A DNA stretch of 64,000 nucleotides from Leptospirales bacterium (lineage in GTDB: Bacteria; Spirochaetota; Leptospiria; Turneriellales; JAOUFE01): positions 1 to 64,000 of the forward strand of contig JBEQLE010000014.1 of assembly GCA_040326155.1 (NCBI GenBank). Reading direction: 5' to 3'. Below are positions 7,024-61,127 of the stretch, in pieces. Positions within the stretch are counted from its first letter, which is position 1, and every line of letters starts with the position of its first letter. The translations under genes were made by a program, and so were the position numbers. The notes beneath the pieces are model-generated. The model was not told the origin of the DNA. It did not search any database and saw nothing but the letters and a program-made list of their open reading frames with translations.

Positions 7024-7230
7024 AAATATTTGAAGAATCTTCATCTGGTCTCGCTTTGCAACTCAAAAAAGCCCTGGGGATTTCTGCCAATATCTAGAAT
7101 AACATGAATGCTACCTGTGAATTGTTTACTGCCAGAGAAAAAGAGAAAATCACACTGATCGGCAGTTGAATCGATTATCGTTTTTACCCCCGGGAAATAT
7201 TACGTCACATTTGATGATTTTACATTTGCT

Positions 7231-7298
7231 AAAGGGGGAGAAGTCTCTCCCCTCGCTTTGGCTATTTTGCACAAGGCAAAATGAGCCGCCGCTACCCC
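7231..7298 (-). repeat. Dispersed structured element, copy E1
   Basis: Minus strand: ggggtagc-ggc-ggct-c-attttgc..gcaaaat-agcc-aa-agcgagggg-agagacttct-ccccc-ttt. Confidence 0.6.
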
Positions 7299-7799
7299 AC
7301 ACGTATAAACGAGAGTGAGTCCGTATTATTCACAATCAAGGTAATGATTTATTTAAGACATTTCTAAGATTTGTAGATATGTCACTTGGAGTAGATACCA
7401 AACCGCTCACAAGTCGAACACTACCTAGCATGTTATGGAAGGCCGATAGAAGAAAAAAAATATTGCGATTTTTGCAAACAGCGTCCCACTTTATTTTAAT
7501 TTCAGGTCAAATAAGGCAGCCCAATTTCTAAAATATTATCAATGAGAATTGTTGGGGATTTCCACAACGACAAAACTACATTGACAACCGATCCTGTCAT
7601 TGGCCGTGGGAACGATGCGGGTATTGATGAAATAAATAATTCTAGTTAACTCCCTGATAATTATACCCGAAACAAAAGAATTTTAAGGGACATTCTTATA
7701 TCTGCTTTTAGCGATTTCATGGATTTGCTTGACTGGTTAAACTCTTTGTTGTATAGAGTTATTTTGGATGATGGATGAAATACGCAAACGGATGTACTT

Positions 7800-10700
7800 A
7801 TGAATAAAATGGAAGAGGTTTTTTACAAAACTAATATATGGAAACATTTTGAAAAGGTAGCAGGTACTACAGAAATAGAACTAGTAAAAAATTTAATTTC
7901 GCATTGTGTCCCCATTCTAGAAAGAATTATAGAAACATTTCCAACCTATACATTACATAATGGCCAACATCAACTTAATATATTAAATCTTTACGCCGAT
8001 TTGCTGGGTTCAAAGTTAAAGAAGTTAAGCTCTTTGGAGGCGGCAATACTTATACTAAGCGCTTTATTCCATGATATCGGGATGGTTTTTAATAAAGAGG
8101 AAAGGGAGAATCTAAAAGAAGAGGATCTATCCCCTCAGTTTTTAGTAGATAATCCATCTGCAAGGCTTTTGCAAAATGAAAATGGTGACATGAATGATGA
8201 ACTTGCCGAATGGTATTGTAGATGGTCGCATGCCAAACGAGTTTGGGTTTATTTAGACCAAATAGATGAATTGCTTAAATGGGATGGGACTAACTTTCGA
8301 CAAGAACTCGCTCAAGTTTGTTTTAGCCACAACGAAAAAGCTAATTACATAGAGACCGATGCTATTTCTTCCAATTTTTGGAACAGTGCAGATCTGAAGT
8401 TTTGCGCCATAATTTTGAGACTGGCAGACATATTAGATTTTGATAAGTCCAGATCGCCAGAGAGTGTCTATAAATATCTGGGTCTTGACAAACCGAAATC
8501 ACGTTTAGCTAAAAATAGTCATAAAGAGTGGAGTAAGCATCTTGCCTCTGGCGGATTTGATTTCAAAGGATGGTCGAATACATCAACGTATACTTTATAC
8601 TATAAAGCAAGCCCAGATCATCCCGCAGTAGAAAATGATATTAATGATTTTTTAGATATTATTGAAAACGAAATGCAGGAGTGCAGGGCCGCATTGCGAA
8701 GTTGTTCCGACAAATGGAAAGATTTTATATTGCCCGAAAAAATAGATAGAACAAATATATATAGCCAGGGGTATACAACCGGTTCTTTCAAGTTCAGCTT
8801 AGATCAAAAGCAAATACTTAACCTGTTAATGGGGGAAAATCTATACGAAAACCCTTTTGTTTTCATGAGGGAATTGATACAAAACGCGATGGATACTACG
8901 CGATATAGAAAGAAGCACGAAACGCATATTACAAAATCAGGGTACGCCATACAACCTATAAAGGTTAGCTCCTGGGATGATTCGGGGTTCAAATGGGTGC
9001 GTATCGATGATTTCGGTATGGGTATGACATTGCAACAAATAGAAAAATATTTCTTAAAGATTGGTAATTCATTATACAATTCAGATGAGTTCAAAGTAAG
9101 TAAATTAGATTATTCAAAAGTCGATAAAGATTTTACCCCCGTTAGCAGGTTTGGAATCGGTATTTTATCTTGCTTTCTAGTCGCAGATGTTATTGAAGTT
9201 TCTACGAAGTCGGTCTATTGTGATAAGGATGAAAATCATCCCATCAGGCTTACCTTGCAAGGCATTGCGAATTACTACTTTCTCTACACAGGAAAGGACA
9301 TTCCAAAAGAGATGCCACATGAACATAAAATTGAGAGTGGTTATAGAAGAGATACCGGTACGTCGATTGCATTAAGAATTAACCCGAATTATGACCGAAA
9401 AGAGTTTGATATCCCGAAATTATTGGAGAGTCTGGTTTATGCCTCCCAGGTGCCGGTCGAATATAATTCTATTTTATATGGTAAAGAACAGATTAAAAAC
9501 CTGCCAAATAAAAAAAGAATACATAAGCTTTCCGATGCTGAAATATCAAAGATAAAGGAATTTATTGAAGAGCCCTACCTTAAAATGAATCCAGAAATTC
9601 ATATTGTTCCTATTCCACTTGTTCACGAAAAAGTCAAAAATGCTAGAGGAATAATATATGTTTTCTTATTTAGAGCTAACATTACTTTCTCAGAAGATTC
9701 TAAGTTTGATAAAAATAATTTTTCATTTCGGAATTATAGGAAATTATCAGACTTTCAGATTACATTCAAATATCAAGCATCAACATATGACAACGAAAAA
9801 GAGTCGAATTTTTTTTTGAAGGTAAGCCGGAGAATCAGATATGGTCAACAAATAAAAGATTTCAAAATTCCATTAAATCATTTAATTAGCGACTTGGATG
9901 AATTCAATGGTAGTAAAAATTATAATAGTGTACGTACCAATATATTGCTTTCGCATAATGGGATAATTATACCGAACAATGCTAACTATATTGAAAATGT
10001 GACAAGTTTAGACATTAGAATTCGGGAAAAAAAATCAGGTGTAACATTTTGTCTGGGTATAGTTAATTTAAAAGATGATTTAAGACCAAACCTGAATATT
10101 GCTAGGGATAAAATAATCTCTTTTCCCTGGAATTGCTTTTCTCAAATATGTTTTCTCATTAGGAAATCTCTTGATGAGAACGAGTATAATTTTCGATCAA
10201 AAATTGACTACTTTAGAACAATGAGAGTACAAACTGATAATATAGATAATGATGATTTTATAAATAGTGATGACGGTTGGCCGGAAGTGATTACTATTGG
10301 TGAATCAGATTTCAATGTAAAATCGGTCCCTGAAAATAAAAAAGTCAACTTGGATGTGTTTGACAGAGATGATATTGATAATGCCGATTTATTAAAAAGA
10401 AAAGTAATTTTCAATAATTGTATTTATACCATCAGGCTTGTTAAGAAAAAGAGGGAAGACCCAAAAAAAAATGAATCCGATTTCGAGCTCATTCGAAAAG
10501 CGTATATTGTGGGAAAAAGAAAGTATAAATCAACTGTTTTCCCTTCAGATATTGCTTGCGAATATGAAAACTTCAGTGGCTTAATGCCTTTGGAGCTAGA
10601 TTACCAGTTGTACAATATTAATCATCATTTTACTAAGTGGCTGAAATTAGCATATTCAGAGTTAACAAATAATTACCCTTATTACCTTTGGTCGATTTTT

Positions 10701-10835
10701 GATTCCGAATCAATTGAAGAATTAAACTCTAATCTAGATAAAGTAAAAAAACTGTTACCGGAAGAGTTGCGACCAGATTTTAATATTACCAAGAGCGACT
10801 TCGAGGTGGACTTTAATAAACTTGAAGAGGAATAA
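7800..10835 (+). CDS. HD-CE phosphohydrolase fused to Hsp90-like (GHKL) ATPase; candidate conflict/defence protein
   Basis: YTLHNGQH, LFHDIGM, SHN, LRLADILD (HD); LYENPFVFMRELIQNAMD, DDFGMGM, SRFGIGILSCF, GTSI (GHKL). Confidence 0.85.
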   Translation: MNKMEEVFYKTNIWKHFEKVAGTTEIELVKNLISHCVPILERIIETFPTYTLHNGQHQLNILNLYADLLGSKLKKLSSLEAAILILSALFHDIGMVFNKEERENLKEEDLSPQFLVDNPSARLLQNENGDMNDELAEWYCRWSHAKRVWVYLDQIDELLKWDGTNFRQELAQVCFSHNEKANYIETDAISSNFWNSADLKFCAIILRLADILDFDKSRSPESVYKYLGLDKPKSRLAKNSHKEWSKHLASGGFDFKGWSNTSTYTLYYKASPDHPAVENDINDFLDIIENEMQECRAALRSCSDKWKDFILPEKIDRTNIYSQGYTTGSFKFSLDQKQILNLLMGENLYENPFVFMRELIQNAMDTTRYRKKHETHITKSGYAIQPIKVSSWDDSGFKWVRIDDFGMGMTLQQIEKYFLKIGNSLYNSDEFKVSKLDYSKVDKDFTPVSRFGIGILSCFLVADVIEVSTKSVYCDKDENHPIRLTLQGIANYYFLYTGKDIPKEMPHEHKIESGYRRDTGTSIALRINPNYDRKEFDIPKLLESLVYASQVPVEYNSILYGKEQIKNLPNKKRIHKLSDAEISKIKEFIEEPYLKMNPEIHIVPIPLVHEKVKNARGIIYVFLFRANITFSEDSKFDKNNFSFRNYRKLSDFQITFKYQASTYDNEKESNFFLKVSRRIRYGQQIKDFKIPLNHLISDLDEFNGSKNYNSVRTNILLSHNGIIIPNNANYIENVTSLDIRIREKKSGVTFCLGIVNLKDDLRPNLNIARDKIISFPWNCFSQICFLIRKSLDENEYNFRSKIDYFRTMRVQTDNIDNDDFINSDDGWPEVITIGESDFNVKSVPENKKVNLDVFDRDDIDNADLLKRKVIFNNCIYTIRLVKKKREDPKKNESDFELIRKAYIVGKRKYKSTVFPSDIACEYENFSGLMPLELDYQLYNINHHFTKWLKLAYSELTNNYPYYLWSIFDSESIEELNSNLDKVKKLLPEELRPDFNITKSDFEVDFNKLEEE

Positions 10836-11052
10836 ATCTCCAGCTTTCGGCAAGCGACGAAGCGTTAAACCAGTATGCGTCAGGCGAAATAACAAGTCTA
10901 TTGCTATTTAAATAAATTAGAATGGGAACCACTTACAACTTTTATTTTTGTTCACAGAAAAAGAAAAGTAAGATATACTAGACAAAGTTAAAAAATATAC
11001 TTGATGTCTCGTTTATTCTTACTATATTGAATCATAGGGAGCTGTTCACCTA

Positions 11053-11265
11053 ATGAGTAAAGAAACACAAAAAATAATAAATGCTGCCAAACAAGCTGGT
11101 AAAAAAGCAAGAAAAAGTGCAAAACAACAAGGGTATGAATTTGTACAATTTGAAAACGGTATTTTGTCCAAAATAGAAAACGGGCATAAAAAACAGTTAA
11201 AAGAGATATCAGACTACGCAAAAGTCAAAGAAGAAATTCTGCAAGATAATAGAATTGCCTTATAA
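11053..11265 (+). CDS. Small basic protein, putative partner/antitoxin of zeta-like ATPase
   Basis: 70 aa, overlaps the next ORF; AGKKARKSAKQQGYEFVQFENG resembles partners of this family. Confidence 0.6.
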   Translation: MSKETQKIINAAKQAGKKARKSAKQQGYEFVQFENGILSKIENGHKKQLKEISDYAKVKEEILQDNRIAL

Positions 11266-12028
11266 ACTTCAAAAGCGACTGCGAATATTTGCGGGGCCTA
11301 ATGGGTCTGGTAAATCAACCCTATATCAAAATTTCCCACCAGAAATCAAACGAGGAATATATGTCAATGCTGACGACATTGAAAAAGAGTTGAGGGAAAA
11401 TGGTTCTCTAGATTTCATTCAGTTTCAAATGTTGCCTATCAAAAGAAAACTACAAAACTTTATTGCATCACATAGATTTAATAACAAGGTAAAAAATCAA
11501 TCTGCAATTGATATATCTAAAAATATACTCAAATTACCATCGCAGTATGTTACTTCATATTGGGCAGCCATGATTGCTGACTATATTCGTAAAACACTGA
11601 TAAAAGAGGGCAAATCATTATCCTTTGAAACGGTAATGTCAGGCGTTGATAAAATTGAATTGATGCAAATGGCCATAAAACAAGGATATAAAATTTACTT
11701 ATACTTTATGTGTACAGAAGACCCCATTATTAATATCGATAGAATACAGTATAGAGTTTCAAATGGCACTGGGCATTCAGTTCCAGATAAAAAAGTGAAA
11801 GACAGGTACTATAAAAGCCTTGAATTGCTTGCCAATGCAGTTTTGATCAGCTATCGAAGTTACATGTTCGACACTACGGGTGAAAATGACCGGCGACTTT
11901 GTGCAGAAAAAACGCCCAGACTATTGAGAGTATGCAAACCCAAGGAAATGCCTCACTGGTTGTATAAGTATTTATTGGTGAAAAATTTTGATAGATCAGA
12001 ACCGCTACCACTAAGAAAGTTGAAGTGA
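11255..12028 (+). CDS. Zeta-toxin-like P-loop kinase/ATPase
   Basis: RLRIFAGPNGSGKST, VNADDIE, SFETVMS, RIQYRV..G.GHSVP. Confidence 0.85.
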   Translation: MPYKLQKRLRIFAGPNGSGKSTLYQNFPPEIKRGIYVNADDIEKELRENGSLDFIQFQMLPIKRKLQNFIASHRFNNKVKNQSAIDISKNILKLPSQYVTSYWAAMIADYIRKTLIKEGKSLSFETVMSGVDKIELMQMAIKQGYKIYLYFMCTEDPIINIDRIQYRVSNGTGHSVPDKKVKDRYYKSLELLANAVLISYRSYMFDTTGENDRRLCAEKTPRLLRVCKPKEMPHWLYKYLLVKNFDRSEPLPLRKLK

Positions 12029-12158
12029 AGATGTATTTCGAATAGGTATAGCCAGTAATTACAGAGTACCAAAAAGTTTTATGTAAAGCTTATCAGCAAA
12101 AAGAAAATAAGATAGTTTTCTTATTGTCCGAATGAGACTTTCATCTTGCTTGGTTTAT

Positions 12159-12512
12159 ATGGATTTGCAAACATTTTTACACCAAATAAACAATTCATCC
12201 GAAACTGTGACCTTTGATGAAACAATGGAAGTGATTGATACAATGTATGATTTTGTACCGGTTGCCTTTAGCAATGGTACGCTAAACAATGATGCCGGTC
12301 AGAATAATGGTTCCTGCAAGCTTTTTTCATTTTCTGCACTGCAAGGGTTTTCCAGTGCGCAGACACTTGCATGCTTTGGAGATTATTACAGAAAGGATGT
12401 ACTTGGTAATCCGGAGGGAACCGACCACCAGAATATTCGAAACTTCATGAAAACTGGATGGGACGGAATAAAGTTTACTGCAGATGCTTTGGCTGCCAAG
12501 AGCACACCATAA
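12159..12512 (+). CDS. HopJ-family protein
   Basis: NDAGQNNGSCKLFSF, FGDYYR.DVL.NPEGTDHQNIRNFM..GWDGI. Confidence 0.9.
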   Translation: MDLQTFLHQINNSSETVTFDETMEVIDTMYDFVPVAFSNGTLNNDAGQNNGSCKLFSFSALQGFSSAQTLACFGDYYRKDVLGNPEGTDHQNIRNFMKTGWDGIKFTADALAAKSTP

Positions 12513-12923
12513 GAACTTATCATCCTTTTGATCTCTAGAAAACTCTGTTGATTCTGTGATGTCAATTAGAGTTGTATTCTTTACTAAATAATTTCGCCGG
12601 TGTCAATTTTGACTTTTCTTTTTTCTGACATTCTTAGTAACTTTGGCACCTTCTGCTTTATCAATTCCCAGTTTTTTTGCCAATGCTCTACTAGTGCTGT
12701 GACTGGATAGATGTTACATTAGCTTGTTTCAATATAATCTATCTAGTCACTGCTTAAGTCATAGACTCTGAGTGCAAAAGGCACTTCGAGTGGCGTTTCC
12801 ACTTGAATTTGTGAAGCGGTAGCCGTCGGCTAGCGGAAAAAATTAAAAAGACACGGCACTCGTATGAATGAATTCTTTGAATTCTTCGATTTTTACCCAA
12901 CATCGACCCCACTGTTTATAAAA

Positions 12924-13035
12924 GGGGAAGCGTAGGCTCTTTGTGTAAGGTCATAGCATGCTATGGCCTTACTTAAAAGCCGGAGCGGGGGGAAAATATA
13001 TAATCGGGGTCTGGAATGTACCAGTTTTCCCCGCT
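12924..13035 (+). repeat. Dispersed structured element, copy E2
   Basis: ggggaagc-gta-ggct-c-ttt..taaggtcatagc/gctatggcctta..aaa-agcc-gg-agcgggggg-aaaa..ttttccccgct. Confidence 0.6.
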
Positions 13036-13080
13036 AAAACTTAATAGATAAACCTTGCTAATGTATTTAAACATCTTATA

Positions 13081-14295
13081 ATGGCGACAATGCGAATAAA
13101 AATACCCTTATTCTTCATATTACTGCAGGCGATGTTATTTTTGAGCTGTGCGAACAGCGATGACCTCTACCAGGCACTTCAACAACGCATCGATGAACTA
13201 ACATCACGAGTATATAGCACAACGGCTTCGCGAGTTTATGGACAGTCTGGAAGTTATACTACAAACAATGTGAATAACGGCGCTGCCCCTGACCCGGCTT
13301 CCGGTGATAGTTTATATTCTCCTTATGATGTTGCCGTAGATTCGAGCGATGGAATATATGTGGCCGACAATTCAAATTGTCGTGTATTATATTATGCATC
13401 CGGAAGCACAAGTGCGTCACGTGTGTATGGACAGGACGGAAGTTTGTGGGCAAACATCTGTAATTCTGGTGGTATAACTCCGGATAGTTTGAATTCTCCT
13501 ACTGGCGTAGCATTAGACTCGAGTGGAAACTTATATGTGGCTGATGCTTTTAATAATCGTGTATTGTATTACAACTCAAGTAGCGTAAGCGCATCGGATG
13601 TTTACGGACAATTTGGTGATTTTACTTCCGGTACAGCCAATAACCTGGGTCTCTCTGAGGAGAGTTTGAACGTTCCCTATGGTGTAGCCATAGATTCCGG
13701 AGGCGGATTGCTTGTGTCTGATTTCAACAATTACCGTGTATTGTATTACAACTCAAGCAGCGTGATCGCGTCTCAGGTTTATGGCCAGTTTGGAGACTTT
13801 ACTACAAATACTTCCAATAATGGCGGTGTTTCGCCAGAGAGTTTAAGTACACCCTATGGTGTAGCATTCGATTCCGACGATGGGATCTATGTGGCCGATG
13901 GTGGTAACAATCGTGTATTATATTATGCATCTGGCGGCCCCACGAGTGGGACCGCTTCGCGAGTTTACGGACAGGCCGGAGATTTTACGACAAGTACAGC
14001 CAATAATGGCGGTATCTCTGCAGATACTTTGAGTACGCCCATCGGTGTTGTCGTAGATTCCTTTGGTGGGTTGTATGTGGCTGATGCGGGGAATAACCGT
14101 GTGTTGTATTATCCTTCAGGCAGCACGACGGCTACGCGGGTTTATGGGCAGTTTGGAGATTTTACCACAAATACGGCCAATAATGGCGGCGTATCTGGCG
14201 ATAGTTTGTATTATCCCTCCGGTGTCGAAGTCGATTCCAACGATGGATTGTACGTGGCAGATTCGACGAATAATCGTGTTTTGTATTTTTATTGA
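13081..14295 (+). CDS. NHL-repeat (6-blade propeller) lipoprotein
   Basis: Lipobox FLSC; six repeats of P.GVA.DS..GLYVAD..NNRVLYY...ASRVYGQ. Confidence 0.9.
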   Translation: MATMRIKIPLFFILLQAMLFLSCANSDDLYQALQQRIDELTSRVYSTTASRVYGQSGSYTTNNVNNGAAPDPASGDSLYSPYDVAVDSSDGIYVADNSNCRVLYYASGSTSASRVYGQDGSLWANICNSGGITPDSLNSPTGVALDSSGNLYVADAFNNRVLYYNSSSVSASDVYGQFGDFTSGTANNLGLSEESLNVPYGVAIDSGGGLLVSDFNNYRVLYYNSSSVIASQVYGQFGDFTTNTSNNGGVSPESLSTPYGVAFDSDDGIYVADGGNNRVLYYASGGPTSGTASRVYGQAGDFTTSTANNGGISADTLSTPIGVVVDSFGGLYVADAGNNRVLYYPSGSTTATRVYGQFGDFTTNTANNGGVSGDSLYYPSGVEVDSNDGLYVADSTNNRVLYFY

Positions 14296-14339
14296 ACCAA
14301 ATTATACCACGCATCTTTTCGAAATATATATTCTGCCTT

Positions 14340-16106: not shown

Positions 16107-16187
16107 TTGGGATATAAATTGTCAAGAACCTTCGTGGTCTAAATCGGTAACGCACCGCGAACCGCGTTTTTTTGTGGAGTTGCACTC

Positions 16188-16796
16188 TCAGGCTTTGAGA
16201 CCATGTTTTAGAAAAAGAATAAATTCCTTTAAATATTCCATTGCTTTAGTCAATTCGAATTCTTCATCTTTAAACAAGATATCATCAAATGAAGAGAATA
16301 ACGATCTAATTAGTTTGTCAATAAATTCTGGAGAATACTCACTCTTAAAAGCTCCGGCCTGGTATGATTCTTCGATCATCTGACTTAGCCCCGATTCGTC
16401 ATCTGCCTTTAGGTCCTCTAGCACTTGTTCATATATAGCGGTTCCCTTTTCTTTGGAAAACCTCTTGCCAAGTTTATAGTATACCGGGTGTGCATTCGCA
16501 AAACGAACTCCAATCTCTGCTTGAACCCAAAATAAATCAAAGATATCTTTAGCTTCTTTCGGGTTCGTATCCGTCTTCGTTTCGGTTTGAATATACTGCC
16601 ACTTTCTCTGGTTGCACTCTTTCAATAGGTAGATGTACAGTTCAAATTTATTGGAAAAACGGTAATAAAATGAACCTTTAGTGACCTTGGCTTTTGAGAG
16701 AATCTTATTGATGGAAGCCTCTTCATAACTGTGCTGTGAAAATTCCTCGAGAGCCTCATGAAACAACGCCTGTTCGTCAATGGATCGTTTTCCCAT
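16188..16796 (-). CDS. TetR/AcrR family regulator
   Basis: ALEEFSQHSYEEASINKILSKAKVTKGSFYYRFSNK HTH. Confidence 0.93.
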   Translation of the reverse strand: MGKRSIDEQALFHEALEEFSQHSYEEASINKILSKAKVTKGSFYYRFSNKFELYIYLLKECNQRKWQYIQTETKTDTNPKEAKDIFDLFWVQAEIGVRFANAHPVYYKLGKRFSKEKGTAIYEQVLEDLKADDESGLSQMIEESYQAGAFKSEYSPEFIDKLIRSLFSSFDDILFKDEEFELTKAMEYLKEFILFLKHGLKA

Positions 16797-16800
16797 TATA

Positions 16801-17682
16801 TTACAGAGCTTTTTTTATTTCCGGGACATAGTCGCTTGTGAGCTCCATTAGAGAATAGATTTTGTCTTTATCTTTGCTGTATGTGTTCGAGTCAACTTCC
16901 TGGTTGTGTTCATCAAAATATTTTCCTGAAATGTTTGCGACACTATTAGAGACGGCAAAATGGGTGTAGGTTCGGGCCATGGTTTCGGGAGTTATGGATT
17001 TTTTCGCTTTCACAGAATAAACCCATTTCATAAAGGACGAGAGTTCTGGATGTCGCGCTAAATCAATTTTGACTGCCGTGACGCGAATGCTGTTTACTGT
17101 AATCTTTGTATTTTTAAGGCGCTCGGCCAGCCAATAAGTATACATGAGTTGGGCGATTTTAGATTGGTAATATGCATTGACGATACTAAACTTTTTTTCT
17201 TTAAACTCTGGGTCATGAAGATCCACTTTTAAAAAGGGTTTGGCAAGTAAGCCCTTTGAGGTGATTGTAAGAATACGACCATTCTCACTTTGCTCAAGCA
17301 TATCCAAAAGTAATTCCGTCATGTACACAGGCCCTAAATGATTCGCCGCCCAGACTGTTTCAATTCCTTCGATGTTTTCTTCCCGTTGTTTCTGGGTAAC
17401 GTTGAAAATTGCCGCATTGTGAATGAGTACATCCAAACGCTTATTTTTACTTTTGAATGACTTGACAAACTTCAGAATCGAATCGCGTAGACCCAGGTCA
17501 ACAATCTGCAACTCTACAGAACTGTTTGAATCTAGTTCTTTAATTTCATCCAAAGTCTGCTGACCTCTTTCTCTATTGCGACATGCTAAAATTACATGAT
17601 ACCCTTCACCTGCAACTTGAATTGCTGCCTGTCTTCCTATCCCGGCGTTGGCCCCTGTTATTATGCAAGTTTTTTTATCCAT
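16801..17682 (-). CDS. SDR oxidoreductase (retinol dehydrogenase-like)
   Basis: ITGANAGIG, LDVLIHNAA, NHLG, YYQSK. Confidence 0.93.
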   Translation of the reverse strand: MDKKTCIITGANAGIGRQAAIQVAGEGYHVILACRNRERGQQTLDEIKELDSNSSVELQIVDLGLRDSILKFVKSFKSKNKRLDVLIHNAAIFNVTQKQREENIEGIETVWAANHLGPVYMTELLLDMLEQSENGRILTITSKGLLAKPFLKVDLHDPEFKEKKFSIVNAYYQSKIAQLMYTYWLAERLKNTKITVNSIRVTAVKIDLARHPELSSFMKWVYSVKAKKSITPETMARTYTHFAVSNSVANISGKYFDEHNQEVDSNTYSKDKDKIYSLMELTSDYVPEIKKAL

Positions 17683-17706
17683 TTTTCATTCTCCTGAACT
17701 TTTGCT

Positions 17707-17740
17707 TATAGACCATATAGTCTAGACCGCATGGTCTATA
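17707..17740. promoter_or_regulatory. Double palindromic operator, probably for the TetR regulator
   Basis: tatagaccat..atggtctata (10-bp arms) made of two overlapping TAGACC-N4-RGTCTA sites, 25 bp upstream of the SDR-tetR operon. Confidence 0.75.
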
Positions 17741-17983
17741 CGAGAATGTATAAATTAAAGACACATTTGGCAAATTTATTTCAAGATAATGTTAATAATT
17801 TCTGTATTTTTTAAATGTATTCATCTTTCAATAGCCGGCAATTCTAACAACTATTGATTATTCTTTTATAAAAAACAAAAAACTTTTTGAAGTAAATGCC
17901 TGATTGTATTTCATAATTCACCCACTCCATCGCCTGGCGTAAATCGTCCACCTTTTCGCGGGAAGATTACACTGGCTTTCTTA

Positions 17984-18012
17984 TTGACAAATGATATGAT
18001 ATTTTTTATGCT
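17984..18012 (+). promoter_or_regulatory. Sigma70-like promoter of response regulator
   Basis: TTGACA-17 bp-TATGCT. Confidence 0.6.
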
Positions 18013-18026
18013 AAGCAAAACAGTCA

Positions 18027-18674
18027 ATGGATAATCGGACATTAAATATTGTTATTGTAGAGGACGACCTGGAAATAGGTCAACATATATCATGTGCTCT
18101 TAATGGTAGTAAAGATTTTAAATTACTTAAATGGTTCAAAGATGGCATAGACGTTATTTCGAAAATTCCGGAAACAACTGATGTAGTAATATTAGACTTA
18201 GGTCTTCCCGACGGTTCCGGTCTTGATTTAATTAAGCCTGTAAAAGAAAAAATAAGTAATATTAAAATAGTTGTTTTTACGATATTCGAAGACGATGACA
18301 AGCTTATTTCAGCTATTGCTCAAGGAGCGAATGGATACCTGCTTAAAGATATTCCCGATGAACTTTTGTTGCGAGAATTAAAATCTGTCTGTTTAGGAAG
18401 TGTTCCGATTTCGCCTAAATTGGCCCTGAATATTATCACACATTTTACGGGAGAGGATGTGACCGGTTCGCCTATTTCAAAAAGAGAGAATGAAGTTTTG
18501 GGACTCATCTCCCTTGGATATACATACAAGGATATCGCTGATGAGTTGAATATTAGCCCAAATACGGTTCGCAGGCATACGGACAATATCTATAGAAAAC
18601 TCGAAGTCAATAGTAAATCTGAAGCTCTTATAAAAGCTAAAAGGGGCGGATTTCTCAAGCCTCCTCTTTTATAA
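18027..18674 (+). CDS. NarL/LuxR-family response regulator
   Basis: IVEDD, VILDLGLPDGSG, GANGYLLK, SKRENEVL..ISLGYTYKDIA.EL.IS.NTV..H. Confidence 0.95.
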   Translation: MDNRTLNIVIVEDDLEIGQHISCALNGSKDFKLLKWFKDGIDVISKIPETTDVVILDLGLPDGSGLDLIKPVKEKISNIKIVVFTIFEDDDKLISAIAQGANGYLLKDIPDELLLRELKSVCLGSVPISPKLALNIITHFTGEDVTGSPISKRENEVLGLISLGYTYKDIADELNISPNTVRRHTDNIYRKLEVNSKSEALIKAKRGGFLKPPLL

Positions 18675-20508
18675 CAGGAGAATTCATAATAAAGATATTT
18701 TTCCCATCATGAGTTGTAAATGATCTTGCCCGCGCTCGAATCAATCCACACCTTGCAATAATATTTCGTAAACCGGAACCTACATTTTCTCGCCTGGAAT
18801 TAGAACTCCAGCTGAATGAGCTTCCATTCGTTGTAACAAGGAGACGCATATAATTACTGGAATTTTTTCTTATATGGGCAATATGAATATCGATATCCGT
18901 TGCATTACCATGCCTGATTGAATTTGTAAACCACTCCTGCAAAATTCTAAAACTATGCATGCGAATGGGGACACTGACTCCAGTTGGAATATTATCAAGC
19001 TTCAACGTTATATTAAACTTATCTAACTTATCAAACGAGCTAAAGTAATTTCTGATGTCCTGAGAAAAAGTCTGTTCGGGATGATTAGACATGTTTAATA
19101 TTGTTGTAAAATCACGAGTATCTTCTAAGACATGTTCCAGTTGTTTTTTCAATGCGAGAAGTTCCGGCTTGTCCGCAACTGAATATATCGCCTTAGTCAA
19201 TTCAGTTCCTACTGTATCGTGCACTTCACGAGTTAATATTTCTCTCTCTTTATACATTTTTAATTCAGTCTCGTAATATTTCTTCCTTAACAGATTATAC
19301 CGATCAGCCAAACCTAATGAAAGTAAAATGACTTCCATGACTGAACCGATCTGGAATCCATATTGTATAAAAAATGAGCTTGGTATAATTTTCAATAAGG
19401 AAAGCCAAATAAGAATACCGCCGCTGAGAAAAGTTGTCCATGCCAATAAGAAGTAGCGTGCTGGTCGATATCCTTTTTTATGAGATAACACACCAGCTAA
19501 GATAACGACGGCAACAGTGATTATCGAAAAAGTTGAAGTGATTTTAATTCCAAGAACAAAACCTACAAGGGGGGTTAACATGATCTGAAGAATCCAAACC
19601 CCGGTGAGCCCTAAAATAACTTTTTCCAGTTTAGGAGCGTTTATTTTTGCCTTTAAATAATTACTGGAGAATTGTAGCATAAATATATGAAAAAGCGCCA
19701 GGGAGAAAATAATTGAATTATTTCGAAACCATGTTCCAGTCTCTGGCCACAGGTGTTGACCAGCAAGGCCATTCCAAACTAACTGAAACATTAAAAAGCT
19801 GATAATATACAATACATAGTATAAATAACTTATATCTCGAATGGAAAAGAAAAGAAAGCCATTATAAATGATCATAATGAGCATCATTCCATAATAAAGA
19901 CCAAGTATTAGCTGTTTATTACTTATTTGTTTTGTGTATTTTTCTGACGACCAGATTTTTAAAGGAAACGGTACCGAACCCATATCAGCATATCGTATAT
20001 AAATAATTTTTTCTTCGCCAGATTTAAAATTTATATTTATAACAGGGTTTATATCTTTTATCTTTCTATTGTAAATCGGGGTGTCTTCATCGATTGTTAT
20101 TTTCGTGTAACTGCTGCCAGCTTCCTTTATAAAAAAATCAACTTTGTCAATTAACGGGTAGGCTACTTCTAATAACAGATTTACATTGGTCTGCTGATTA
20201 TTTATAAAATGAACTCTAACCCAGAAGTTAGACTGGCTAAAACCAAAAGAAGGAACAGCATTTTCACTTTTTTTAAATGATGAAAGTTTTTCTGTTAGAA
20301 TATTCTCGAATTTTAATTTTGCAGATTTATCTTCATATATTTGCAGATATAAACCCAGGTCTTTACCGTAGTTATTCTCATTAATCTTTACCAGGTTAGA
20401 TTCTGTGTTTGAATATATGGATGAGCCTGAACAAAACAATAAGAAAGTGAAAAGAGATAAAAACAAACGAATTATTGTGATTTTAAACAACACAGAAGAC
20501 ATATACAT
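18655..20508 (-). CDS. 7TMR-DISMED2/7TM-DISM sensor histidine kinase (HisKA_3 type)
   Basis: PSFGFSQSNFWVR, GLYYGMMLIMIIYN, ARYFLLAW, LSLGLADR, REVHDTVG, FRILQEWFTNSIRHG. Confidence 0.88.
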   Translation of the reverse strand: MYMSSVLFKITIIRLFLSLFTFLLFCSGSSIYSNTESNLVKINENNYGKDLGLYLQIYEDKSAKLKFENILTEKLSSFKKSENAVPSFGFSQSNFWVRVHFINNQQTNVNLLLEVAYPLIDKVDFFIKEAGSSYTKITIDEDTPIYNRKIKDINPVININFKSGEEKIIYIRYADMGSVPFPLKIWSSEKYTKQISNKQLILGLYYGMMLIMIIYNGFLFFSIRDISYLYYVLYIISFLMFQLVWNGLAGQHLWPETGTWFRNNSIIFSLALFHIFMLQFSSNYLKAKINAPKLEKVILGLTGVWILQIMLTPLVGFVLGIKITSTFSIITVAVVILAGVLSHKKGYRPARYFLLAWTTFLSGGILIWLSLLKIIPSSFFIQYGFQIGSVMEVILLSLGLADRYNLLRKKYYETELKMYKEREILTREVHDTVGTELTKAIYSVADKPELLALKKQLEHVLEDTRDFTTILNMSNHPEQTFSQDIRNYFSSFDKLDKFNITLKLDNIPTGVSVPIRMHSFRILQEWFTNSIRHGNATDIDIHIAHIRKNSSNYMRLLVTTNGSSFSWSSNSRRENVGSGLRNIIARCGLIRARARSFTTHDGKNIFIMNSPVIKEEA

Positions 20509-20683
20509 TTATTACCCCTGATGTAAATCAGATTATTTAAATTCATACATGTAGCAACATAATCCTTTGTACAGAACTAATCGATTTCAGCCATTCTGTC
20601 TATAGTGCATCTTGCACTATAGACAGTACGTTATAATTGTGATATACAGGAAACAACGAATTATCTATAAAATGGAGGACATA

Positions 20684-21331
20684 ATGAACATAAAAAATAT
20701 ACAAAAACGTAATCTGTTACATATTTTGGTGATCGGATTTTTTGCACTATTTGCGATATCATGCGCCAATAATGGCGGCTCTGGTTCTGACTCAAATTCC
20801 AGCAGTGAGTACATACCAACTGCGATATTATTATTTTCAACTGCTGCGGTAGATGGAAATTTTGGAGGCAGATCGGGCGCCGATACCTTATGCGCCAATG
20901 CCCAGCCGGTAGCTTACACATGCAATCAGATACGAGCCTTTATTTCAACTGATGGATTTAACGGCGCTGATGAAATTATTGATATGCCGACAAATTACAG
21001 TGTGCCAACAGACTTACCTTTGAAAGGGCCAACAGACGTAACTGTCGCTAATGACTGGGCTGATGCCATTGATGGTACGTGGATAACTTGCCTGGGAACT
21101 TCATGCGAAAACCTAACTACTCCGTCTGATGTTATTACCAGTGCATTTTACTGGACAGGATCTTATGATGACACGACGGGTAATCCGACATACTGTTCCG
21201 GGTGGACATCAAATGCTAATGCTGACACTGGACGATCGGGTTTCTGGACGAAAAGCACCAGTGGAGGGCACATAGGTGGATCGTCAAAGACTTGTGACTT
21301 GACTCAACCACTTATTTGTCTATGCTATTGA
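20684..21331 (+). CDS. DUF1554 (Len/endostatin-like) lipoprotein
   Basis: SD GGAGG; FAISC; DGNFGGRSGADTLC, YWTG, C.GWTS, C.....LICL. Confidence 0.82.
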   Translation: MNIKNIQKRNLLHILVIGFFALFAISCANNGGSGSDSNSSSEYIPTAILLFSTAAVDGNFGGRSGADTLCANAQPVAYTCNQIRAFISTDGFNGADEIIDMPTNYSVPTDLPLKGPTDVTVANDWADAIDGTWITCLGTSCENLTTPSDVITSAFYWTGSYDDTTGNPTYCSGWTSNANADTGRSGFWTKSTSGGHIGGSSKTCDLTQPLICLCY

Positions 21332-21337
21332 ACATTA

Positions 21338-21379
21338 CGCCGCCGTACGGACTCGATTCATCGCGTCCGTACGGCGGCG
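21338..21379. terminator. Strong hairpin between convergent genes
   Basis: cgccgccgtacggac-N12-gtccgtacggcggcg, perfect 15-bp stem. Confidence 0.75.
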
Positions 21380-21392
21380 GGCGGCGGCTTTC

Positions 21393-21776
21393 TTATTGTT
21401 TATAAAATTTCAGATATTTTACGTCGCACTCTTTAATATGATGAAAGGGATTCATGCTGTTTCCGTAATTTTGCAGGGTAAGTAAACCTTTCGAAGGATC
21501 TGTGATCTCTGTTTCAAAATCTCCGTAATTCAGGTAGTTTTCATATATCTTTAACATACCCGTTTTGTGAATTTTTTTGCCTTTGATTTTATACCGTATG
21601 CCATTTGTCGTTTTTGTCAAGGTAATGGTTACATGGCAACCGCTTTCTTGCGTGGTTACATATGTGCCAGGCAAGTATTTATACGCCGACTCTTCTGTTT
21701 CTGGTTTACACATGAATGTAAAAAATATACAAAATATCATCGTAATAAGTAGAGTTTTCATGTTTGTATTTTTCAT
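21393..21776 (-). CDS. Hypothetical lipoprotein
   Basis: Signal ending FTFMC; C-terminal QNYGNSMNPF..I.ECDVKYL. Confidence 0.7.
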   Translation of the reverse strand: MKNTNMKTLLITMIFCIFFTFMCKPETEESAYKYLPGTYVTTQESGCHVTITLTKTTNGIRYKIKGKKIHKTGMLKIYENYLNYGDFETEITDPSKGLLTLQNYGNSMNPFHHIKECDVKYLKFYKQ

Positions 21777-21827
21777 CTGCCTTTATTCTTGCCCGACTCA
21801 TCGGCACCAGAAAATTTTATGACAAGA

Positions 21828-23567
21828 TTATCGATCTGAAATCTGGGGCTTCGGTGGGTACCTGTTGTCACTTTCCGGGTTGTGGTAATCTGGGTTAAGT
21901 TTACTGTAAATTCGCAGAACATCATTTGCTATGGTTTCTCCTGCGACGGCGTATGGTAAAATGACTTCATTGGCGCCGGCATCGATCATTTTTGCTATCT
22001 GGTTTACATATTCGGCGTTGGCATAAATAAAAGCGTTTGGCGCAAGTACCCGACAAAGGCGTATTAATTTTTCGTTATCGACTCCCTTTAAAAGAAAATC
22101 AGGAATCGTAGATATAATAATATCGGACTTATTTACATGAGCATGCTCTAGAGCTTCTGAAGAGGCGATGTCACCAACTATAAATTTGACTCCCAGACTT
22201 TCCAACTCTTTGTGATATTCTGAATTAAAGTCAATGATTTGAACTTTTGCCAGCAGATCAGGGCTTACCTGGACGAGCCAGTGTATAAAAGCGTGGGCAC
22301 CCCGATGGTAGCCGAGAACGGTGATGCTTCTAACATCGTCCACAATTTCTTCTGCGGGTGTCTCTACCTTCCCGAGAATTGTTGTGGTGAGTTTGTCGTA
22401 AATATTGAAAAGCTGTCGGTTATATTTAATGATGTAGGAACCTAATATGGATGTGATCGACATGGCGTAGAGCAGGGTGGACATGACATGCCCTGAGATA
22501 TGGTTGAGTTTTAAACCTATGGCTGCAATGACCAGAGCAAACTCGGAAATTTGAGCCAGGTTTAAAGAGGCCACAAAGGCTGTTCTTTTTCCGGAACCTC
22601 CGAGACGAAGGACCGGGTAGAATATAAATGGACGAGCCAGTAATGCAATGACGACAACCAGAACGGCGTCTTGAATCAGGCTAAATTGCGGGAAGGGGAT
22701 TTCCATACCCAGCGAGATAAAAAAGAGCGTCAGGAAAAAATCACGTAACGGCGCTACTTTTGAAGTGATGTGGACACTGTAGGGGAAACTTGCCAACGTT
22801 ACTCCGGCTACCAGCGCTCCCATTTCCATGGAAAGACCTATCACTTTACCATAGCCAGCCATTAAGGCGCACCAGCCCATTCCAACGGAAACCAGCATTT
22901 CGGGAGCCAGTGATAATCTTTGAAAAAGCGGTTTTAATATAAACCGGCTTACAATTAAACCGGAGATTAGAAGTAAAGCTACCCGACCGAGTGCCGAGAG
23001 GATATTTACAATTTCCGGGTTGTCCAGGTTTGGTTGCAGGGCCAGAAATAGAATGGCCCATAAGTCCTGGAAAATTAACATACCAATGGAAGCTTTTCCA
23101 GATAATGTATTGAGTTCAAAATTATCGTTTAATATTTTTACTACAATTGCTGTACTCGAAAAAGAGACTCCAACGGCCAGGTAAAGAAGGTCAAAATTAT
23201 TGCTTTGGTAACCATATCCTATAAGTGCGAATGTACCCATAGAAAGAACAAGTACAAGGGGAAATTGCATAATTCCCGGAAGTAATAAAGTTTTAAACTC
23301 TTTTTTCAGATGCGACGGGTTCATCTCTAGACCAATAATAAAGAGTAGTAAAATGAGGCCAATTTCGGCAATCACCTTAATATTTTCAATATCATGAATA
23401 AAAGAAGAGCCAATTGCGGGTCCAACTATTATACCCGCGATGAGATAGGCGAGAATGATGGGTTGCTTCAACCTGTGGGCAATTACGCCCATGAGTGTGG
23501 CTACAATAATGGCAATTCCAATGTCTTGTATAAATGTATGCATCGCGTGCAGAAGATTCAGTTTCAA
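21828..23567 (-). CDS. CPA2 cation:proton antiporter with C-terminal RCK/TrkA-N domain (Kef-like)
   Basis: LKQPIILAYLIAG, AEIGLILLLFIIGLE, SSTAIVVK, LIFQDL, LAQISEFALV, IVGDI. Confidence 0.92.
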   Translation of the reverse strand: MKLNLLHAMHTFIQDIGIAIIVATLMGVIAHRLKQPIILAYLIAGIIVGPAIGSSFIHDIENIKVIAEIGLILLLFIIGLEMNPSHLKKEFKTLLLPGIMQFPLVLVLSMGTFALIGYGYQSNNFDLLYLAVGVSFSSTAIVVKILNDNFELNTLSGKASIGMLIFQDLWAILFLALQPNLDNPEIVNILSALGRVALLLISGLIVSRFILKPLFQRLSLAPEMLVSVGMGWCALMAGYGKVIGLSMEMGALVAGVTLASFPYSVHITSKVAPLRDFFLTLFFISLGMEIPFPQFSLIQDAVLVVVIALLARPFIFYPVLRLGGSGKRTAFVASLNLAQISEFALVIAAIGLKLNHISGHVMSTLLYAMSITSILGSYIIKYNRQLFNIYDKLTTTILGKVETPAEEIVDDVRSITVLGYHRGAHAFIHWLVQVSPDLLAKVQIIDFNSEYHKELESLGVKFIVGDIASSEALEHAHVNKSDIIISTIPDFLLKGVDNEKLIRLCRVLAPNAFIYANAEYVNQIAKMIDAGANEVILPYAVAGETIANDVLRIYSKLNPDYHNPESDNRYPPKPQISDR

Positions 23568-23864
23568 GCTCTCTGGTAAACCGAAAAACCTGCAAGAAAT
23601 GGAATTAGGCCGAAAAAGGTATCAAATATATTATATATGTAGATAAAACAGGTAAAAAATGGCTTATATACAATAATTTTTGAATCTAGCCCCGATTTTT
23701 TGCAATTTAGCGAAATATTGTTGACTTTGCATATTCGATTCAATAAAAATCCACAGATTAAGATGTTATGTGTTTAAGTAAGAAAATTTCAATACTAAAT
23801 CGAAACTTTAATTTCGATGGTAGAAAGGTTATTATAATTCACCATTAATCTAAGGAAGGAAACA

Positions 23865-24071
23865 ATGAGTAAAGGTACAGTTAAATGGTTTAATTCAGAC
23901 AAAGGTTTTGGCTTTATTACGCCGGAAGATGGCGGAAAAGATCTTTTCGTTCATCATTCAGAAATTCAAAGTGGTGGCGGACATGCAACGCTAAACGAAG
24001 GGCAATCAGTAGAATATGAAGTGGGTCAAGGTCAGAAAGGCCCATGTGCAAATAAAGTCGTCCCCGCTTAG
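23865..24071 (+). CDS. cspA: Cold-shock protein
   Basis: [39 protein letters not shown]. Confidence 0.95.
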
Positions 24072-24076
24072 ATCAT

Positions 24077-24241
24077 TTTAGTCGCGTTATTGAGAAATTT
24101 AATTTGTCAACATCTTGTCTTGTTATATAATCCATTCAAATAGAGTTTTTAAGATATTTCCTTTTGGTTAGGTCTTACCTTTTTTATGGATTATGTAACG
24201 GCAATTTCTTGTACATAAAATAGATCAGTTGCGCGACTAAA
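24077..24241 (+). other. Long interrupted stem-loop in the csp 3' region
   Basis: tttagtcgcg/cgcgactaaa, tgagaaatt/aatttcttg, ttgttatataatccat/atggattatgtaacgg; mismatches are G-U on the + strand. Confidence 0.6.
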
Positions 24242-24462
24242 CCTCTTGTCTCATTCAACTAAATCGAACAAAACCCAACACTAGTGCTCATTTTTGGCGT
24301 TACAAATACTCCTTAATAGTCCGAAATTATATTCCTATTTTAAATCTATTAACTTACTGTTTACCTGATTTTTGTCTAAGATAATTTATGGATAAAAATT
24401 GCCTTTATTCGATGCGTAACCGATGGACCATAGTTTCGGTTTCTAAAAGTGTATAATACGTC

Positions 24463-24553
24463 GGGGTAGCAGAGAATCTTTTTTGACTCCGGCGAAACGC
24501 CTATGGCCTCTGGGTTCACAAAAAAATTCGGAGTGAGGGGCAGACTTGCCCCT
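24463..24553 (+). repeat. Dispersed structured element, copy E3 (possible sRNA)
   Basis: ggggtagc-aga-gaat-c-tttttt..ggcGAAAcgcc..aaaaaa-attc-gg-agtgagggg-cagacttg-cccct; TATAAT at 24452-24457. Confidence 0.6.
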
Positions 24554-24705
24554 TAAAAATGCGAAAAAAAGTGCTCAACTTGTATTTGCATTGTCGCATG
24601 AACCGGACACTGTTAGAAAAAACCTGATGATAGTATATAAGTTGACAATAGGTATTTATTGAAGATAGTGCATGATGACCACATGAGATAATAGGAGAAA
24701 TTACC

Positions 24706-61122: not shown

Positions 61123-61127
61123 TTATC

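Follow-up and report, generated by a model that had tools for sequence, protein, structure and literature searches.

The available text of one account (PMC10969869) describes the Rickettsia palindromic elements, or RPEs (Ogata et al. 2000, 2002), as in-frame, translated hairpin repeats without a known transposase, and notes that MITEs may contain sequence resembling promoters or terminators and are occasionally joined in frame to open reading frames. In Treponema denticola, the TD-1 and TD-2 motifs, with 28 and 36 representatives, covary, lack a consistent link to particular genes, and include some mutations that break pairs, as set out in the accessible part of Weinberg et al. (2007; PMC1950547). 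REP and BIME elements, which number in the tens to hundreds, are short, GC-rich, extragenic imperfect palindromes that often lie just past stop codons. Here we describe a structured repeat that resembles each of these in part. It was found as three patches, E1 to E3, in a 64,000-nt stretch of a Leptospirales genome (the whole stretch is called the window below), and we found no published description of it in the literature. We consider it fairly probable that a hairpin-module repeat of the REP/RPE type, selfish and non-autonomous, has been dispersed through the genome and that the patches are among its copies.

The sequence bears out the positions and strands given for all three patches in the original prediction, and the patches follow one structured plan, as had been claimed: GGGG-W-AGC-GNR-[4-bp stem]-(bulged C)-[U/A-rich stem, variable tip]-[4-bp stem]-NRA-GCG-R-GGGG-[loop]-CCCC. 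Each is directed towards a gene on the same strand. E1 (7229–7306, minus strand, GGGG starting at 7298) belongs to the short-P3 subtype and matches our covariance model at 65.2 bits (E=1.2e-16). It runs from a 5' A-rich/CGT box through GGGG and an outer stem GC/GC with a GNR/NRA purine loop to the inner stem GGCU/AGCC, which is followed by a bulged C and a U/A stem, and its closing hairpin is GGGGAGAG-ACUU-CUCCCC. E3 (24456–24559, plus strand, GGGG starting at 24463) is of the same subtype (54.8 bits, E=9.4e-14). Its TGTATAAT-ACGUC box precedes GGGGUAGCA, the inner stem GAAU/AUUC, and finally GGGGCAGACUUGCCCC, and its P2 is branched or extended and includes a GGCG-AAA-CGCC hairpin. The closing loop AGACTT, said to be shared by E1 and E3, does occur in both. 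E2 (12916–13037, plus strand, GGGG starting at 12924) matches the strict regular expression and is one of 14 true subtype-A copies in the genome; model R1, derived from copies of the other (short) subtype, matches it only weakly (13 bits, E=0.048). A TTATAAAA box is followed in E2 by GGGGAAGCG and the inner stem GGCU/AGCC, which carries a long P2 hairpin; the closing hairpin (GCGGGGGGAAAA...UUUUCCCCGC) is also long, and the 3' end lies 46 nt upstream of the ATG of an NHL-repeat gene (13081–14295).

The three predicted copies are real, but the count was too low. A fourth copy lies at 61126–61218 on the minus strand (15.3 bits, E=0.011, filters off), reads GGGGGGUGGCAGAGAACGG...CCGGUCGGCGCCAGGGG, and has a 37-nt insert in its closing hairpin and the covarying variant UGGC/GCCA as its outer stem. 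Across the family, the core can be written as GGGG-UAGCG-[purine loop + covarying stem]-AGCGA-GGGG-loop-CCCC, that is, a G-tract, a hairpin, and a second G-tract pairing with a C-tract, in a unit of 60–150 nt with two to three hairpins. The base of the central hairpin is a fixed U-A / A.G / G-C / C-G stem with a 3x3 purine-rich internal loop, and the inner stem and tip vary.

Rfam 15 gave no match at the gathering score anywhere in the window. At E<=10, E1, E2, and E3 had chance-level matches only, the best of which (Clostridiales-2, 20.1 bits; gathering score, 58.6) overlaps just the last hairpin of E3; at E<=1, 20 loci from other genomes returned just a neighbouring tRNA and two weak unrelated matches. 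The TD families did not appear in these permissive scans of E1 to E3 and the 20 loci. The TD-2 model (RF03162) had no match in this genome or its relative G001, and only sub-threshold matches in Treponema ruminis (3) and T. pectinovorum (4), those in T. ruminis lying at positions other than the 24 element copies; TD-2 was accordingly rejected. The prediction that the element falls outside the known Rfam and riboswitch families thus agrees with all of these searches. As multi-copy, spirochaete-restricted covarying motifs with modular or variable-length stems, TD-1 and TD-2 appear, from the available text of their description, to be the same kind of object, and they are probably also repeats.

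A genome-wide search with a covariance model, proposed alongside the original prediction, brought many further copies. The union of regular-expression and covariance-model matches comes to at least 112 copies on 66 of the 171 contigs. The strict expression finds 46 copies and a looser one 54, 2 of them false, and half-motifs are also in excess (5', 208 against about 94 expected by composition; 3', 97 against about 39). The model, built from 13 short copies, gave at least 119 matches at E<=1, at least 95 of them with E<1e-3, among the 150 of 1563 first-look candidates that were scored. On these counts, the similarity of the patches is far beyond chance. As repeats that break assemblies should, 13 of the 95 strong matches sit no more than 400 nt from the end of a contig. 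The copies are mosaics in which shared P2 tips and closing loops are recombined; some have decayed by internal deletion (C171:3122) or truncation (C126:28434), and others are interrupted (C84:26716, C118:1893/2015).

Copies in this genome are intergenic, and the 11 that seemed to lie inside genes are in short ORFs that look spurious. Orientation relative to the neighbouring genes looks random: among the 100 best matches, the upstream and downstream genes are same/same in 28, same/opposite in 20, opposite/same in 21, and opposite/opposite in 17, the remaining 14 having no called gene on one side. The neighbouring genes are unrelated; of the 44 genes that lie downstream on the same strand at up to 350 nt, the only related ones form two pairs, which are mutually unrelated.

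The covariation claimed for the 4-bp stem (GGCT/AGCC in E1 and E2, GAAT/ATTC in E3) stands. In 57 distinct rows from this genome, aligned by fitting to the model, each of the four inner-stem pairs varies on both sides, pairing holds in 93.7% of cells as against 45–54% when partners are slid by 1–3 columns, and the covariation score was reached by none of 500 shuffles. It also holds in 93 copies from other genomes, likewise fitted to the model. Copies chosen by regular expression have an outer stem fixed by that selection; outside this set, the outer stem covaries too (UAGC/GCGA against UGGC/GCCA, UGAC/GUCA, UAGU/ACGA, and UGCC/GGCA). Covariation among paralogous copies can partly come from subfamily ancestry rather than selection. 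The strand had been thought to be indicated by a G-U pair and a GAAA tetraloop, and this is not settled, with G-U exceeding A-C within helices by just 19 to 10 and the two strands folding about equally well. For the four window copies, fold z-scores are -1.8, -4.2 (E2), -2.6, and +0.25 in sense and -3.5, -4.5, -1.9, and -0.7 in antisense. Conserved A-G mismatches are the feature that best distinguishes the strands.

Counts in the four genomes of the family, G000 (this genome) to G003, are 88, 54, 45, and 51. Most other genomes of the order have no copies, the class-level family f8 has 0 to 10, and 18 of 151 genomes in a sample of the phylum have a match at E<=1e-5, which is a pattern of lineage-specific bursts. 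A cross-genome scan for the core gave at least 123 stretches, and the covariance model returned 93 matches at E<=0.01 in the 91 loci submitted to it. The core is present in Treponema, Spirochaetaceae, other Spirochaetota, Fibrobacterota, Chitinispirillales, Leptospirales, records of Nitrospirae, and a few other MAGs, with dispersed copies in T. ruminis (24) and T. pectinovorum (12). Treponema and Fibrobacter relatives carry an extra 5' hairpin that is absent in the G000–G003 family, and the A-rich 5' box is absent from the relatives. The conservation of the core across phyla, together with the conserved A.G mismatches and the purine loop, would also suit a functional RNA.

In T. ruminis, 6 of the 16 copies looked at (24 in total) lie within ORFs, five of them in Pfam-confirmed genes (FolE2, DUF763, GltB, HsdS, and CarA) and one in a 586-aa ORF with no Pfam match. 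All six are in frame and free of stops; five are antisense and one sense to the chosen orientation, and the antisense copies encode the recurrent peptide GESLPLA..A.A.SATPS.G. Among 10 Treponema species compared, the GltB site is empty in 3 (G064, G062, and G055). G041 has an element there, G070 has one of a different 5'-hairpin subtype, and G085 has a copy whose outer-stem 3' half is deleted and whose inner stem is broken. The site is a case of presence/absence polymorphism and of structural decay after insertion. Going by the available description of RPEs (PMC10969869), both are multi-copy hairpin repeats of roughly 100–150 nt with no known transposase, and both occur in frame within unrelated housekeeping genes, where they encode a recurrent peptide. 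Such in-frame insertion is found here in the Treponema relatives and not among this genome's copies, which include none inside a convincing gene. The element also differs from RPEs in its hosts, which are Spirochaetota, Fibrobacterota, and others rather than Rickettsia, and in its build, with G-tracts and three distinct local hairpins in place of a single long palindrome.

Sites in this genome were also compared with those of relatives. The genes flanking E1 and E2 have no orthologues in G001–G003, and neither a search for paralogous empty sites within this genome nor a metagenome scan found one. An element beside a conserved gene in G003 was not found beside the orthologue of that gene in G002. 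Since there was no sufficiently close filled/empty pair, the element ends are not fixed to the nucleotide, no target-site duplication was delimited, and mobility in this lineage is suggested by copy number and by the relatives.

The original prediction had offered a REP/MITE-like element as one reading, which is right in kind, as the element is high-copy, dispersed, indifferent to orientation, and polymorphic for presence among relatives. REP/BIME elements are alike in form, copy number, and position, and in mosaic clustering with other modules, and the commonest form here, GGG-GTAG-CG, contains GTAG. The present unit is longer, with two to three hairpins, and its relatives insert into coding sequence. 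The suggested linkage to TnpA-REP or IS200/605 genes was not seen: the Y1 transposase domain (Y1_Tnp, PF01797) had no match in G000 (94.7% complete), G001, G002, or any of the 7 f8 genomes, one match in G003, and matches in 19 other genomes of 41, most of them element-free. REP/BIME with RAYT (a REPtron) does not fit, as PF01797 was not found in the carrier genome, and neither does the invariant REP tetranucleotide GT(A/G)G, since the GTAG of GGGGTAGCG is a covarying stem (UGGC/GCCA, UGAC/GUCA, UGCC/GGCA) and subtype A has GAAG. Rpn nuclease (PF04754) likewise had no match in G000–G003. A single enzyme gene may be missed because the genomes are about 94% complete.

MITEs such as Correia/NEMIS, ERIC, BOX, and Nezha are, in the accessible account of them, similarly small, non-autonomous, dispersed repeats. 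In contrast to them, the printed copies have no terminal inverted repeats beyond GGGG...CCCC apparent by eye, and the analysis turned up no parent IS whose ends match; apart from that of a 4-copy rve_3 IS, whose ends lay outside this comparison, no transposase was seen in multiple copies. Inspection of 17 candidate split-end pairs yielded no convincing autonomous copy. Treponema is known to carry integrons, and integron attC sites are recombination sites that fold as single strands, vary in length, and conserve their structure, mismatches, and extrahelical bases more than their sequence. They were rejected: RYYYAAC/GTTRRRY core sites were not apparent by eye, and the copies, instead of forming same-strand arrays, are scattered over 66 contigs in random orientation.

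REP elements in E. coli have roles at transcript ends, and a mobile element co-opted here as transcript punctuation, acting as weak bidirectional terminators or mRNA 3'-end stabilisers, is an alternative that we regard as unlikely. The agents would be the closing GGGG-loop-CCCC hairpin with UUU(U)AAA and, just past convergent stops, its reverse complement. A downstream gene is called for 95 copies and is convergent for 43. In 26 of these 43, no more than 45 nt separate the match end from the stop of that gene, and in about 6 the stop overlaps the TTA of CCCC(T)TTAA; the fourth window copy ends 4 nt from the stop codon of the convergent gene 59827–61122. Such proximity is expected anyway in short convergent spacers, and the distances from element to stop vary. 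TTT(T)AAA mostly follows the short-P3 subtype, whereas subtype A has GCAUAAU in place of a U-run, and a terminator scan called no canonical terminator at the closing hairpins of E1 to E3, where the U-run is too short.

The copies might instead be about 100 independently transcribed small RNAs or cis-acting leaders or attenuators, each predicted to have its own -10-like box, to start at the G-tract, and to end at the closing hairpin, with the 5' GGGG competing with the internal GGGG for the CCCC strand. The TATA-like boxes first noted upstream are present as gtttata (E1, E2) and tgtataat (E3), but they are really part of a conserved short A-rich+CGT stretch at about -13 to -1 relative to the element, and a sigma-70 two-hexamer scan called no promoter there. 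With its conservation and constant spacing, the A-rich box might be a -10 element. Consistent with transcription are that fixed spacing from the G-tract, extended -10 sequences like TGTATAAT in E3 and in a composite subfamily of roughly 190 nt, covariation with variable-length stems, the G-U excess and conserved A.G mismatches, and the direction of E1 to E3 towards same-strand genes. Genome-wide, however, gene orientation is near random, with the convergent cases above, and the downstream genes are unrelated; relatives, which have no A-rich box, occur within ORFs in either orientation, where translation reads through them; the old orthologous copy in G085 has no central hairpin; and antisense strands fold as well as sense. 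The new sRNA or attenuator family of the original prediction thus gained no positive support, and we consider this reading quite improbable.

A role as duplex DNA binding sites, operator-like or nucleoid-organising, for an abundant protein such as a tandem ribbon-helix-helix ORFan family (19–28 copies in this genome; CopG/RHH-like at E=0.016) was considered because an element lies 100–165 nt downstream on the same strand of 5 of 19 family genes, against a rough, uncomputed chance estimate of about 0.5 in 19, and divergently upstream of 4 more. It is very improbable, weakened by a phyletic mismatch in which the protein family occurs in genomes of the order that have no element (17 of 20 in family f6) and was not found in G003 (51 elements) or any of the 7 f8 genomes, by the absence, by eye, of any of 26 listed G001 genes within 1 kb of 40 listed elements, and by stem covariation, which is not expected of a duplex site.

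On the reading that we prefer, a selfish hairpin-module repeat, a folded single-stranded form, more likely of DNA than of RNA, would be recognised by a trans-acting enzyme that copies or moves the element. That would account for the covarying pairing and for the indifference to flanks, host genes, and orientation. On this view, the element has lost the extra 5' hairpin in the G000–G003 family and gained the A-rich+CGT 5' box, and it has multiplied there, always between genes, until each genome has from about 45 to over 100 copies. Any effects that it has on neighbouring genes today, such as those of hairpins at transcript ends, would be a by-product.

All three patches singled out by the original prediction, E1, E2 and E3, were found in the window sequence as described, and they are copies of a dispersed hairpin element. 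The 5′ part is a short A-rich box that ends with CGU in E1 and E3 and with AAAA in E2, and conserved sequence 5′ of the ensuing G-run reaches only about 13 nt. This G-run, of at least four G, leads to a central hairpin (P2) whose base is U-A, A.G, G-C and C-G, above which lie a 3 × 3 internal loop (5′ GNR / 5′ NRA) and a 4-bp inner stem, often with a bulged C next and then a variable extension. In the 3′ part another G-run precedes a loop, and a C-run then closes the last hairpin (P3). ViennaRNA recovered this fold for most copies and left the first G-run unpaired.

The covariation first noticed in the 4-bp stem holds generally, as every inner-stem pair covaries, both among the copies of the window's own genome (G000) and, in a separate set, among 93 copies from other genomes. 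Inner-stem cells were paired in 93-94% of cases vs 44-59% with partners slid, and the covariation score was reached by 0 of 500 shuffles; these figures overstate independence, since the rows were aligned by fitting them to the model, and the paralogues have a common ancestry. The outer stem, which the regular expression fixes, covaries too in copies that only the model picked up. As for the strand, which had been read from a G-U pair and a tetraloop, the count of G-U vs A-C pairs (19 to 10) leaves it undecided, and a thermodynamic test of folding energies gave no preference between the two strands. The most strand-specific features are the conserved outer-stem A.G mismatch and the purine-rich loop.

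Across the 4.26-Mb G000 assembly (39.6% G+C), a strict regular expression found 46 copies and a looser one 54 matches, two of them false, and the half-motifs alone were over-represented two to two-and-a-half times. R1, a covariance model built from 13 short copies, returned 119 matches at E ≤ 1 and 95 below 1e-3, with 150 of 1563 candidates scored. Seventeen true regex copies were missed by R1, mostly of subtype A, the long-P3 subtype to which E2 belongs; with these included, the total comes to at least 112 copies, spread over 66 of the 171 contigs. A contig end lies less than 400 nt from 13 of the 95 strong matches. The window was thought to hold three copies, and these are present, but with filters off the covariance model also matched a fourth at 61126-61218 on the minus strand. 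Its outer stem is a covarying UGGC/GCCA, its closing hairpin carries a 37-nt insert, and 4 nt separate the end of this copy from the stop codon of a convergent gene (59827-61122).

Shuffling among copies is seen in the P2 tips and the closing loops, and some copies are truncated or interrupted. One inner palindrome, GGTGTCGCATATATGCGACACC, recurs at the P2 tip in copies at C98:39784, C131:13941, C152:8689, C132:17558, C94:103601 and C83:27175 (C numbers are G000 contigs), which differ in their outer stems, and CCGGGCGGGGCTTGCCCCGCTTGG is likewise recurrent in copies on C21, C83, C151, C22, C116 and C126. From their sequences, these recurring palindromes look like nested or exchanged modules. 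Some copies are part of a larger composite of about 190 nt that also has a TGTATAAT box and additional hairpins, at C86:1494-1690 and about 20 other places in G000. Ahead of the element, this composite has a CTTTTCTTTTG-CGG-CAAAAGAAAAG hairpin, a CCCCGGCGGTCAGCCGGG hairpin, a TATTGTATAAT box and a small covarying hairpin (UUCG-AAAA-CGAA or CUUCA-AAC-AUGAAG); a second composite group has the small hairpin only.

A family of small RNAs or attenuators had been proposed, and the absence of a match to known RNA families is confirmed, with Rfam 15 giving none at gathering score over the window. At permissive settings only chance-level matches appeared, there and at 20 loci of other genomes. The regulatory proposal itself finds no support in G000, where element orientation relative to neighbouring genes is close to random and the same-strand downstream genes are unrelated to one another. 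At E1-E3, where TATA-like boxes were said to precede each copy, a simple sigma-70 scan called no promoter; a simple terminator scan likewise called none there, and regional totals of both were at shuffle level. Element-to-stop distances vary, with no fixed register that would indicate stop-codon targeting. Those G000 copies that seem to lie within ORFs do so in short, spurious-looking ones, and the copies in this window are ordinary intergenic repeats. Between E1 and E2 are genes for a 1011-aa protein that has HD-CE (PF24391) as its N-terminal domain (7800-10835, plus strand) and, next to it, a protein of 257 aa that matches Zeta_toxin/AAA_33 weakly (11255-12028, plus strand), as well as a HopJ-family ORF (12132-12512); together they may form a neighbourhood of defence or conflict type.

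In G001-G003, the other three genomes of the G000 family, the element has 45-54 matches per genome; most of the order's genomes have none, and those of a class-level family (f8) have 0-10. In the phylum sample, 18 of 151 genomes gave a match at E ≤ 1e-5 with strict filters. When 185,579 species genomes were scanned for the exact pattern, at least 123 stretches matched; those listed are mostly from Treponema, other Spirochaetaceae, Fibrobacterota and Chitinispirillales, and also include a Leptospirales MAG, Nitrospirae and a few Firmicutes/Bacteroidota bins, with at least 5 of 81 listed matches being chance occurrences in high-G+C coding DNA. Copies in the pattern-scan genomes have no A-rich box and carry an extra 5′ hairpin, GGGG-YKUU-[NNGGGG loop CCCCNN]-RGAR, in 52 of 81 by a crude regex. 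As a check on taxonomy, GlpK was uninformative, with identities of 57% to Treponema, 51% to a named Leptospirales MAG and 33% to G001. Among predicted viral or proviral contigs, the model accepted 7 of 32 pattern matches, the other 25 being chance pairs of two 9-mers; these seven full copies (loci L271, L276, L277, L281, L292, L293 and L295) lie on six contigs.

In Treponema, dispersed copies number 24 in T. ruminis RU1 and 12 in T. pectinovorum. Gene context was analyzed for 16 T. ruminis copies, five of which are within Pfam-confirmed genes: FolE2, DUF763, GltB (in the central domain), HsdS (between the two target-recognition domains) and CarA (in an inter-domain linker). A sixth lies within a 586-aa ORF with no Pfam match, and three more lie at a gene start or a short way upstream of one, the genes concerned being coaE and those for an ABC ATPase and a substrate-binding protein. 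All six intragenic copies are read through with no stop, and five are antisense to the element orientation used here, an excess consistent with the antisense strand having more stop-free frames. The GltB site is a variable loop that has no insert in three of ten Treponema species compared. An insert is common to genomes G041 and G085, with the inner stem and the outer stem's 3′ half lost from the G085 copy, and at the same place G070 has a copy with the other common 5′-hairpin subtype. This loop is a tolerated insertion hot spot, and the GltB pattern has the look of a mobile, selfish insertion, not a conserved regulatory RNA. Other, unrelated insertions occupy the loop in further Treponema species (L231 in G052, L233 in G078 and L236 in G051); the peptide ...SHGFDFAN... 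is common to those of G052 and G078, and G078 gltB holds a further element copy downstream in the same gene.

The suggestion of a REP/MITE-like element is supported in kind, but its link to RAYT (TnpA-REP, the Y1 HUH transposase, PF01797) is not borne out: no Y1 (IS200/RAYT) transposase turned up in G000, G001, G002 or the f8 genomes, and such transposases are common in element-free relatives. One candidate mobiliser was a G000 ORFan family of 19 members by all-vs-all BLAST and 28 profile matches, with proteins of about 187 aa that have two ribbon-helix-helix-like segments and a conserved C-terminal tail (GRF...LGIK.Y...DYW). These proteins have no match in Pfam or NCBIfam and a weak one to CopG (E = 0.016), and their genes (e.g., L238:601-1164, minus strand; also L243, L257, L258 and L248-L253) ride on a repeat unit of about 750 nt. 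The element lies 100-165 nt downstream of 5 of the 19 genes and divergently upstream of four more. It occurs in multiple copies across the order (23 of 41 genomes) but was not found in G003 or f8; on this phyletic mismatch with the element it was rejected as mobiliser, and the adjacency is unexplained, not causal. An autonomous, cargo-bearing version was sought among 17 candidate split-end pairs in G000, none of which was convincing. Rpn (PF04754, Transposase_31) nucleases were not found in G000-G003, and viral-contig matches gave no sign of a phage vector. No transposase lies beside the element in single-copy genomes (G035, G007 and G008), where ordinary enzymes and transporters flank it. The only multi-copy transposase in the G000 all-against-all comparison is an IS-like gene with an rve_3 integrase core, in four copies (C103:231-1184, C124:5372-6328, C151:14382-15344 and C60:16-405).

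Paralogous empty sites were not found within G000, a metagenome scan with a 27-base E2 flank gave 0 matches, and proteins flanking E1 and E2 were not found in G001-G003 with the queries used. A G003/G002 comparison yielded nothing at one locus; at another the element is missing beside an orthologous gene, and synteny is broken, so no exact element ends could be drawn.

Among Rfam families, TD-2 (RF03162), a Treponema denticola motif, comes closest in kind; it matches nothing in G000 or G001, and its sub-threshold matches in T. ruminis lie away from element copies. Full-text literature searches yielded no description of the element; supplements to PMC12306157 (RepRanger REP lists for Leptospira and Spirochaeta) and PMC8632094 (unnamed motif lists) could conceivably include one. 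Tested for membership in REP/RAYT, TD-2 and attC, the element fell outside all three. It works like REP, in Treponema also like Rickettsia palindromic elements (RPEs; PMC10969869), and is similar in kind to the TD motifs (PMC1950547). Covariation with conserved mismatches suggests that a folded single strand may be recognized, and analogy to IS200/IS605, REP and attC would favour DNA rather than RNA as that strand.

A broader reading, which we consider rather unlikely, is that the element is the trace of an undescribed kind of DNA movement. A structured, G-tract-flanked module of three hairpins with a conserved purine-rich internal loop would be copied across Spirochaetota, Fibrobacterota and other phyla without a dedicated transposase of a known family, through either an RNA intermediate or a conserved enzyme of the host, and essential proteins would tolerate it as a linker that is translated; this lineage's copies would also have gained a promoter-like 5′ box, so that about a hundred small structured RNAs would be expressed.

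If the element is, as seems likely, a selfish repeat of the REP/RPE kind, small palindromic repeats of this sort living in protein-coding genes would not be a Rickettsia curiosity but would also occur in free-living and gut spirochaetes and Fibrobacter, with one recognizable core spanning several phyla and no known transposase attached. The covariance model and the cultured carriers (T. ruminis RU1 and T. pectinovorum ATCC 33768) offer a handle on the enzyme that moves REP/RPE-like elements. For annotation of these genomes, GC-rich covarying spacer hairpins are not necessarily regulatory RNAs, and Pro/Ala/Ser/Thr-rich insertions in conserved enzymes may derive from repeats.
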